Shown piece after piece: positions 26,101-29,100 of a DNA stretch of 64,000 nucleotides. Where the stretch lies: positions 16,922,750 to 16,986,749 of the forward strand of contig CM074524.1 in assembly GCA_037379345.1 (NCBI GenBank), given 5' to 3'. The DNA is from Perna viridis. Taxonomy: Eukaryota. How positions within the stretch are numbered: the stretch's first letter is position 1; every line of letters begins with the position of its first letter. The translations under genes were made by a program, and so were the position numbers. A model generated the notes under the pieces. It was given only the letters and a program-made list of their open reading frames with translations, made no database searches and was not told the origin of the DNA.

Positions 26101-29100
26101 TGCTTTTTTTCAAGCTTTGATGAAATGTACCATGAAAACTTTGGCAGGATTGTTTCTCCATAAATTCCTTAAAGGGGACTGCTTGCTATGTATGGGCTAG
26201 CACAGTAAAACTCAAGTTAGAAAAATATGGAGTGTTCTATTGGTCATATCTTAAAATAGTGAAATACATATATCTGCCTTTTGCTTAGGACCTAATACTG
26301 CAGTCAACCAATCACTATATCTGTTCTTTATTTTTTTCAGCATCTAGTTTAAATGGAAATAAAGACTCTATCTACAGCCTTGCAATGAATCCCCCAGGGT
26401 CCGTTATTGTGTCAGGATCTACAGAAAAAGTGTTAAGGGTTTGGGATCCACGGACTTGTCAGAAACTCATGAAACTTAAAGGGCATACAGATAATGTTAA
26501 GGCATTGGTGCTCAACAGAGATGGCACTCAGGTAAATCATCCTCGAAAAGATATTGTGTAAAATCTACCAGACAACTGAAGATGTCTATGGATCATTGTT
26601 GTTGTAAATTTAATTTTACTATCCCAAATGAATCCTTTTCAAGCTGTTTCAAGAAGCTGTTTTAATTTTGTTTTATTAATCAACTTTTTAGTATGAAAAA
26701 ATTAAATGAACAATTAAATTTATCATGTTCTTTGTGTGTATATTTTTTGTATGCGGAATAAATGAATCATATAACCAAAACTTTGTCTGTCTTGTGTTTT
26801 AACCATTTGCCTGATGGGCTATGGCTAAAGCTAGAAACTAGTAATATTTCAGTTCAATTTTTTATATTTGTTTTGGCCATGTACTAACTGTCTATACAGT
26901 TATTTAATTTGGCTATTACTAAGTTGTTAAGTAGCTATAATGCTTTTAGCACAAATCATGTCGTTTTCTTTGAAAGTGATACTTGGCTCTGTGGCTTATT
27001 TTTTTTAGAATATACTGTTTTTTGATTATTGAGAACAAAAAACCTCCTATATTTTTCAGTGTTTGTCGGGGAGCTCAGATGGTACAATAAGGTTATGGTC
27101 CCTGGGTCAACAGAGATGTGTAGCAACATTTAGAGTCCATGAAGAAGGGGTTTGGACCCTACAGGTGAGTGTCTGTAGTAATGGACCCTACAAGTGAGTG
27201 TTTATAGTAACGAACCCTACAGGTGAGTGTAATGTCTAAAGCAACGAACCCTACAGGGGACAGTAATGACTATAGTAACGGATCCTACAGGTGAGTGTAA
27301 TGTCTATAGATAGTAATGGACCCTACAGGTGAGTGTAATGTCTATAGTAACAGACCCTACTGGTGAGTTTAATTTCTATAGTAACGGACCATACAGGTGA
27401 GTGTCTGTAGTAATGAGTGCAATGTCTATAGTAATGGACCCTACATGTGAGTGTAATGTCTATAGTAACAGACCCTACAGGTGACTGTAATGTCTATATT
27501 AATGGACCCTACAGGTGAGTGTAATGTCTGTGGATAGTAATGGACCCTGCAGGTGAGTGTAATGTCTATAGTAATGGACTCTACAGGTGACTGTAATGTC
27601 TATATTAATGGACTCTACAGGTGACTGTAATGTCTATAGTAATGGACCCTACAGGTGAGTGTAATGTCTATAGTAATGGACTCTACAGGTGAGTGTAAAT
27701 GTTTATAGTAATTCATTGTACTGTCTGTTCCATGAATTGATGGCCCTTTAGGTAGTAAAATTTGTTAATTCAACTCAATTCTTTCAGTGATGAAGAATCA
27801 CATTCTAATAAATCCATGTTTTTTTTTGTATTTATTCATTAAGAGATAACATAAAAAATTTGATTTTCGTCAAGAATATGTTACTGTCCAAGTCTACAAA
27901 GGGAGATAATCCAATTACTGAGTTTCTATTTGACATAGAGGGTATTCTTATTTCGGAGAGCATGTTCACAGTGTTTCTAGTTATATTTAAACTATGCTTC
28001 ATATATATATATTGTCCACAGGAAATTTTTCGACTGCCTTTCTTTCTCTTTAAGACCATTGACAGATGATTTTGTAGGTCTGAAACAAGTTATTAGTCAG
28101 ACCAAGTGTCCAGCATGTAGTCTCAATAGTCGTTTTCATATTTACTGAATGCAAGTCATTTTAGTTTTCAAGGGACATAACCATACAAATAAGGGTACCA
28201 AAATCAACCAACATACAACAGCCAGGTTAGCGCTCTCGTTTAGGAAAGTAAGACAAGTACTCAAGTTTAAACTATGTTTGCTTCAATAAATACCTAAATG
28301 GTTTAAAATAATTTGTTTAGAAGTACCCCAGTACTATAAACCACAGCTCAAAAAATCAAATATTTGAATTTGAAGTCTTCTACTGTCCATTGATCCAATC
28401 AGACAGTAAACAGTTTTCCCTTTGTCTCCAATTTAAAAAAAATGAAGTCAAAGCAAGGAATATGAAAAAGCACCATTGAAATAGAAATGTCCTGTAATTA
28501 CAAGTGGTGATTAGTGCTTCTAAAAGAACAAAAGTAGATGGTGTTGTGTGGAATTTAAGATCATTTCAGACTTCTAGATATTCTAAGCTCATAATGCAAG
28601 ATACAAATTAAACTCCATATTAGTTAGTTTTGGATTCAAGTACGCTTTTCATCTTAATTTTTAGGCAAATGAAAGTTTCTCCACAGTATATTCTGCAGGC
28701 AGAGATAGGCGAGTTTGGGCAACAGACATCAGAAATCCAGAATACAGAACTCTTATCTGTGAAGAAAAGGCTCCTGTGTTAAGGGTAAGATTGCACAATA
28801 CTCTTTTCAGTTGTTATACTAAATATACAGTTACAGAAATGTGTGGAGGCAAAATTATACTTTTGTTACATTAATCATTGTATCTTATGAATTGGAGTGT
28901 ATTAAGCAGAAAACTATGTTGTGTTTGAAGATTTGGATTGTAAATTTCATCTTTACATACTGACTATACAACCCATGTGGTTATTTATGAATGCTAGGTC
29001 ATTATTGGTATCCATAATTTAAAAAAATACTTAAGAATTGGCTATGATAAAAATTTTGTCCATTGAAAAATAACATAAATTTTCTGTGTGCATATTGTTT

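Follow-up and report, generated by a model that had tools for sequence, protein, structure and literature searches.

The analysed window, a 64,000-nucleotide stretch of Perna viridis DNA, carries the gene for WDR48/UAF1, in which a minisatellite lies over the border between exon 7 and intron 7. The features on which the analysis rests were the following:

20161..39925, + strand: WDR48/UAF1 gene, 18 coding exons, 667 codons
27060..27164, + strand: exon 7, 105 nt, end phase 0, corresponding to human WDR48 residues 225-259
27153..27711, + strand: minisatellite of 16 units, 29-50 nt per unit, mostly 34
27162..27170, + strand: authentic 5' splice site CAG|GTGAGT, which is that of unit 1 (splice-site pattern)
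27165..28664, + strand: intron 7, 1,500 nt, unrelated to the array unit beyond 27711 and closed by an ordinary T-rich acceptor
27191..27199, + strand: unit 2 donor, weakened to CAA|GTGAGT (+29 nt, frameshift)
27195-27197, + strand: in-frame TGA, included upon use of any of units 3-16
28665..28784, + strand: exon 8, corresponding to human WDR48 residues 260-299
36027-36232, + strand: exon 15 of the 18-exon model

Read through the first donor, the gene yielded 18 exons and 667 codons with no internal stop. Exon 7 ended at human residue 259 and exon 8 resumed at 260/261 (its second residue is human 261, at the start of the match in the protein comparison), so that a collinear WDR48 protein is obtained via the first donor only. 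The match of both exons to human WDR48 bore out the claim of a preliminary description of this DNA that unit 1 is the true end of exon 7. The unit 1 donor also had the strongest predicted U1 pairing among the 17 donors of the gene.

Each unit was made up of about 12 nt of exon end and about 17-22 nt of intron start. The last exon-like base was located at 27164, 27193, 27222, 27256, 27290, 27328, 27362 and 27396 for units 1-8, and at 27446, 27480, 27514, 27552, 27586, 27620, 27654 and 27688 for units 9-16, giving spacings of 29, 29 and then mostly 34 nt, with 38 occurring twice and 50 once. The unit alignment agreed exactly with the earlier count of about nine perfect donors and three with GTGACT: CAG|GTGAGT was present in 9/16 units (the authentic donor and eight copies) and CAG|GTGACT in 3/16, the remaining four being single-unit variants, namely CAA|GTGAGT in unit 2, CAG|GG without GT in unit 4, CTG|GTGAGT and CAT|GTGAGT. 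The GT was kept in 14/15 downstream copies. The statement that every unit holds an AG|GT went too far, since it was retained in 11/15 downstream units. The motif CAGGTGAGT occurred 11 times in the window, nine of them inside the array, against 0.27 expected, and none of 100 shuffles reached 11; the minisatellite of about 16 junction copies is thus confirmed, far above chance. A genome search with a 671-nt query covering the array returned one match.

Tandem Repeats Finder (TRF) described the array with a period of 34, 15.4 copies, 75% matches and 11% indels, and with nested periods of 84, 106 and 224 that are internal signs of turnover. Several units have a variant in common, for example GTGACT or an insertion of 4 nt, and this points to slippage or unequal exchange. 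That a shorter array was expanded during assembly is highly improbable: tandem arrays are prone to copy-number error, but these units differ in both sequence and length, and nested multi-unit blocks are typical of real turnover. The suggestion that an intron arose here when an AG|GT proto-splice site was tandemly duplicated was discarded, there being no exonic duplicate that flanks a new intron on both sides. The array does not represent an intron gain, since its unit consists mostly of intron start and bears no relation to the acceptor at 28664.

Use of any downstream donor would lead to a premature stop (n = 15/15), as the preliminary description had predicted in the form of a frameshift of +29 nt or an in-frame TGA. 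Unit 2 would add 29 nt, shift the frame and stop at codon 308, while the 14 donors of units 3-16 include the TGA at codon 270; every one of these stops precedes the final junction by over 1,000 nt, as is expected of alternative splicing coupled to nonsense-mediated decay (NMD). These stops are what a length-variable NMD rheostat would require, in which more copies bring more downstream splicing and the early stop lowers WDR48 output to an extent used by selection. Eight of the downstream donors are perfect copies, and perfect pseudo-sites are able to compete in the human F7 gene, with leak cited for IFI6 and CBS (PMC1557585, as far as described there). However, stops arise free of charge in AT-rich intron sequence, similar arrays are present in many unrelated genes, and the choice of donor in F7 was unchanged over 1-12 monomers (PMC1557585). 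Nor did the donors carry a mark of selection: in units 2-16, the columns of the donor 9-mer were no better conserved than the others (9/135 versus 19/195 mismatches, p = 0.42), in a test of low power on a single genome. We therefore regard the rheostat as unlikely.

The same array could be read as a recursive-splicing ladder, with intron 7 removed stepwise via the AG|GT sites, of which those 11 downstream units keep one. As acceptors these sites were poor. They lack a pyrimidine tract and scored -3.2 to 2.8, whereas the 17 real WDR48 acceptors had a median of 5.7, although five of these scored no higher than the best array site; among 895 background AGs in introns, the 95th percentile was 2.1. 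Recursive splice sites are typical of very long introns, and the host intron measures only 1,500 nt; the steps of 29-58 nt are short, at or under the usual minimal intron size. A ladder is extremely improbable, and neither it nor the rheostat found support. As for the idea of a U1 sink, or of local protection from early polyadenylation, in which the extra sites bind U1 and alter elongation or cleavage, nine sites with a predicted U1 pairing of -14.1 kcal/mol do lie within about 530 nt. U1 is very abundant, however, and the genome holds 34,642 AGGTRAGT sites, so that 8-15 extra sites on one transcript cannot titrate it; we consider this reading very unlikely.

Five further duplications were found at borders of WDR48, three at acceptors and two at donors, and an array of the same kind was found in its neighbour gene VPS13B:

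22136..22269, + strand: 70-nt duplication, exon 2 acceptor region (TRF)
24764..24888, + strand: 24-nt array with copies of the exon 4 acceptor (the TRF extent ends at 24871, 13 nt before the real acceptor)
25724..25896, + strand: 93-nt duplication, exon 5 end and donor (TRF)
35984..36034, + strand: 18-nt x 2.9 array, exon 15 acceptor (TRF); contigs take the exon-side copy
36189..36305, + strand: 59-nt duplication, exon 15 end and donor (TRF); contigs take the first donor
G000:C14, stretches upstream of the window's end, - strand: VPS13B donor array, in a gene picked without regard to repeats

The VPS13B array consists of six copies behind one exon (29 nt x 5.8, AAG|GTAAA). A 54-nt duplication at 37534-37638 starts 6 nt past the exon 17 donor and thus adjoins the border without crossing it, and a similar duplication starts a few bases into an intron of a dynein gene; protection from deletion near exons would fit such duplications beside, not across, borders. 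Elsewhere in the window, a 50-nt minisatellite of about 11.5 near-perfect copies and a degenerate tail (42488-43382) lies between the 3' ends of WDR48 and VPS13B, and positions 1-16500 are occupied by at least four copies of a 3,672-base tandem unit. Its coding-like repeats, rich in lysine and alanine, are on the - strand, and the TRF units suggest that this is probably a cluster of histone genes.

Of 24 sequencing runs, all in the form of assembled contigs, 21 are presumed to be of RNA. Contigs from such runs (X1, X2, X3 and X5) were aligned over 27720-38800 and bear on donor use at exon 7 only indirectly; they are taken to derive from spliced RNA because their pieces skip introns; assembled contigs lose rare splice forms, and are therefore blind to low-level use of units 3-16. 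The X2 piece on exon 8 began at 28663 (from_end of 59 at 28721, the meaning of this column being our reading, verified against five further rows), which implies that the preceding exon ends in AG. For this contig, units 2, 7 and 9 are thereby ruled out, whereas units 3, 5, 6, 8 and 10-16 are compatible with it. Upstream of exon 15, the X2 and X3 contigs extended over 1,421 and 1,423 nt, consistent with the 1,435 nt of the first-donor coding sequence, though not decisive. In X2, X3 and X5, the contigs covered exon 15 to 36232 and continued with a stretch of exactly 77 nt, which matches exon 16 in length, before reaching exon 17. The end at 36232 and the 77-nt run show that the exon-side copy is used at both border duplications of exon 15, the exon-side acceptor and the first donor being found in contigs of three of the four runs, from three studies; X1 had no such exon 15 piece among those listed. 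No exon junction was seen among the 15 contig joints listed out of 123, the joint and loose-end tables being filled by contigs of interspersed repeats. In each of the four runs, the summed contig depth was very high over intronic interspersed repeats at about 36855-37058 and 34730-35050, which are accordingly abundant in transcripts of other loci.

A strict pattern of three exact AGGTRAGT motifs spaced 15-40 nt apart gave 334 matches genome-wide. In contigs C1-C4, whose matches were listed in full and which make up 36% of the genome, 36 separate loci were counted by eye, one of which (L037) is not a clean array; extrapolation gives about 100 strict donor arrays in the whole genome. The arrangement is thus common in this genome, and the WDR48 array needs no special explanation. 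Among 34 peptides scanned, a Pfam match (E<0.005) lay just upstream of the first donor at eight loci, comprising ankyrin, papain protease, AAA, ZIP, ERMP1, dynein AAA_7, a WDR5-type propeller and a thioredoxin-like domain, the last two under the curated Pfam cut-off. The closest named relatives were Mytilus proteins, with 93% over one dynein exon and 75% over one VPS13B exon.

Some of these loci deserve separate description. One array (L054; G000:C2, about 615700-616900, - strand) exceeds all others examined in length and uniformity, with 27 near-identical donor units of 46 nt that follow an exon of a papain-family protease gene. Two strict arrays, L050 and L051 (G000:C4:34523060 and 34534017), lie 11 kb apart on one strand; they have no Pfam match, and we read their peptides as suggesting that the two exons could be part of a single ABCC/MRP-type transporter gene. 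L050 and L052 have a period divisible by 3 and an open unit 2, so that a second donor would add in-frame residues. In L006 (about 1340-1460), the exon ahead of the array has no Pfam match and is one that we take to resemble an SRPK-type kinase exon; it is preceded by TTCCTTAAC, which presumably resembles a minor-spliceosome branch point.

The number of array loci per 1,000 single motifs was 2.9 for the donor motif, against 0.46 for the control motif TGARTGGA (nine loci, p = 3e-8) and 1.7 for the control AGATRGTG (36 versus 19 loci, p = 0.058), with control rates that differ almost fourfold from one another; the list of single AGGTRAGT motifs (G000:C1, about 2018740-2018900) skips copies inside a listed array, which may affect the rates. 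The 36 arrays and 30 single motifs were then compared with an exon score, the 17 control-motif loci L055-L071 standing outside this set. Exon ends were called for 20/36 arrays and 8/30 singles (p = 0.025), and for 17/36 and 5/30, respectively, at a stricter cut (p = 0.010). This score was trained on WDR48 alone, passes 20 of 405 AGGT sites on the opposite strand, and is biased toward arrays by considering up to five candidate donors in each, as opposed to one per single; the singles were the first 30 of 51 sub-sampling hits and include two sites from the same microsatellite and two from the same repeat family.

Within genes, 6/11 of the TRF arrays of WDR48 fell on a border, against about 1.0 expected. 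Without the index array, the count was 5/10 versus 0.94 expected (p = 0.001), or 4/10 if the exon 4 array is dropped as well (p = 0.009). The dynein gene had 2/6 arrays on borders (0.85 expected) and VPS13B 1/11 (0.69 expected). Pooling the three genes without index arrays gave 8/27 versus 2.47 expected (p = 0.002), whereas the excess in dynein and VPS13B, taken without WDR48, was not significant (3/17 versus 1.54, p = 0.19); in all these counts the borders were called by eye, the exon limits of dynein and VPS13B are approximate, and periods below about 15 nt were left out. All three comparisons pointed in one direction, but given the small samples and the scoring bias, an over-representation of arrays at real exon ends of about two- to threefold is plausible rather than demonstrated. 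Such an excess could reflect the places at which duplications form, a slower decay of arrays with one exonic copy, or protection against deletion near exons. That splice borders in this genome acquire or retain tandem duplications about threefold more often than other places is a proposal that we hold to be slightly more doubtful than probable. It would be distinctly unlikely that this bias, together with perfect-donor ladders in at least 100 conserved genes and with a copy number that shifts splicing into NMD, amounts to a fast-mutating, genome-wide dial of gene output, of which WDR48 is one example.

For a set of 18 exon-linked arrays, chosen by exon score, Pfam match or peptide reading, the strength of the successive donors was compared. 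Unit 2 was not weaker than unit 1 in 15/18, and in 3/18 a later copy paired better with U1 than unit 1 did. Donor choice therefore seems to follow position rather than strength, and the genes appear tolerant of an equal donor next to the real one. In WDR48, donor 1 is expected to be dominant, since it is both perfect and first. Three further ideas on donor choice were discarded. A hairpin over the authentic donor (-16.5 kcal/mol, z = -1.08) was equalled or exceeded by 27 of 200 shuffles. The predicted openness of donor 1 (0.006) lay within the range of the copies (0.000-0.096). As to a selective weakening of the donor next to the real one, unit 2 was weaker in 3/18 other arrays, as compared with 37/128 of the later units, which is weak evidence because the search pattern favours intact copies.

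Taken together, we consider it quite likely that the WDR48 array is functionless: a border duplication that has grown to 16 units, from which the first donor is taken, and whose rare later use leads to a premature stop and NMD. It would have begun when a single short piece spanning the border of exon 7 and intron 7 was duplicated by slippage or repair, and could have been enlarged by slippage or unequal exchange of multi-unit blocks. The first donor would be chosen by exon definition or by 5'-to-3' scanning, as in human F7, and the rare transcripts spliced at later donors would stop early and probably be removed by NMD. The array may have survived because the exon-side copy is intact and the extra copies leave with the intron. 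That the spliceosome must choose the first of many equal donors, as was first suggested, is also our best reading, although it is not new, given the F7 precedent. Against a neutral reading stand the eight copies that equal the authentic donor, all of them of perfect consensus, and some leak to neighbouring copies may occur, given the pseudo-sites used in IFI6 and CBS and the competition by perfect pseudo-sites in F7. The weakened unit 2 and the GT-less unit 4 could reflect selection against leak, yet unit 2 was weaker in only those three of the 18 other arrays.

As a single locus, the WDR48 array carries little weight, for it repeats a known arrangement, but it offers a natural test of donor choice with nine perfect donors, the real site and eight copies. 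The roughly 100 strict arrays, together with the possible enrichment at exon ends, would make first-donor choice, leak and effects of length testable over many genes, and the strict donor arrays are a trap for gene prediction in the Perna viridis genome. Searches of a body of literature that lacks most subscription papers returned no report of a border minisatellite in a bivalve and no genome-wide count of such arrays, which does not imply their absence from print.

The closest counterpart is the repeat of intron 7 of human F7, with a 37-bp unit, in which, according to the accessible part of PMC1557585, only the most upstream functional donor is used, splicing shifts to the next one when the first is knocked out, and donor choice does not change between 1 and 12 monomers. 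In both genes the first unit lies across the border, identical intronic donors follow, and the unit size is similar; F7 differs in having 5-9 copies, a moderate donor (TGG/gtgggt) and 4 exonic bases in the unit, whereas WDR48 has 16 units and about 12 exonic bases. Perfect CAG/gtgagt pseudo-sites took about 70-90% of splicing from the weaker first site of F7 (PMC1557585); WDR48, with an authentic site and eight copies that are all perfect CAG|GTGAGT, represents a case outside the F7 experiments as described there. Similar arrays with 10-25 donors behind the real one, a range that includes the WDR48 copy number, are listed in the same source for IFI6 (6-16) intron 2, CBS intron 13, LMNB2 and PDGF; two pseudo-sites are cited as used besides the authentic one in IFI6 and CBS, and the authentic site alone in LMNB2 and PDGF.

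The 'mirages' of lancelets, described in Adh3, the globins BflGb6 and BflGb9, troponin C and PGBD5, have units of 10-160 bp and reportedly leave splicing undisturbed (PMC3087553, PMC3902484, in the parts available); they resemble the WDR48 array as tandem border copies in a marine invertebrate, but belong to another phylum and were reported gene by gene. Minisatellites of about 30 bp also lie at the borders of human segmental duplications (PMC2812944, in the part available), where they are able to give rise to introns or to alternative transcripts in paralogues of recent origin, whereas the WDR48 array lies in a single-copy region and in a conventional intron. Unit 1 of WDR48 spans a real exon/intron border, and its units, head to tail and 29-50 nt long, within the roughly 10-160 bp of the class, repeat a splice signal into the intron. 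On the features tested, the array falls into one class with the border minisatellites of the F7 type and the 'mirages' of lancelets, and the arrangement itself is of a kind already known from human F7, IFI6 and CBS and from lancelets.
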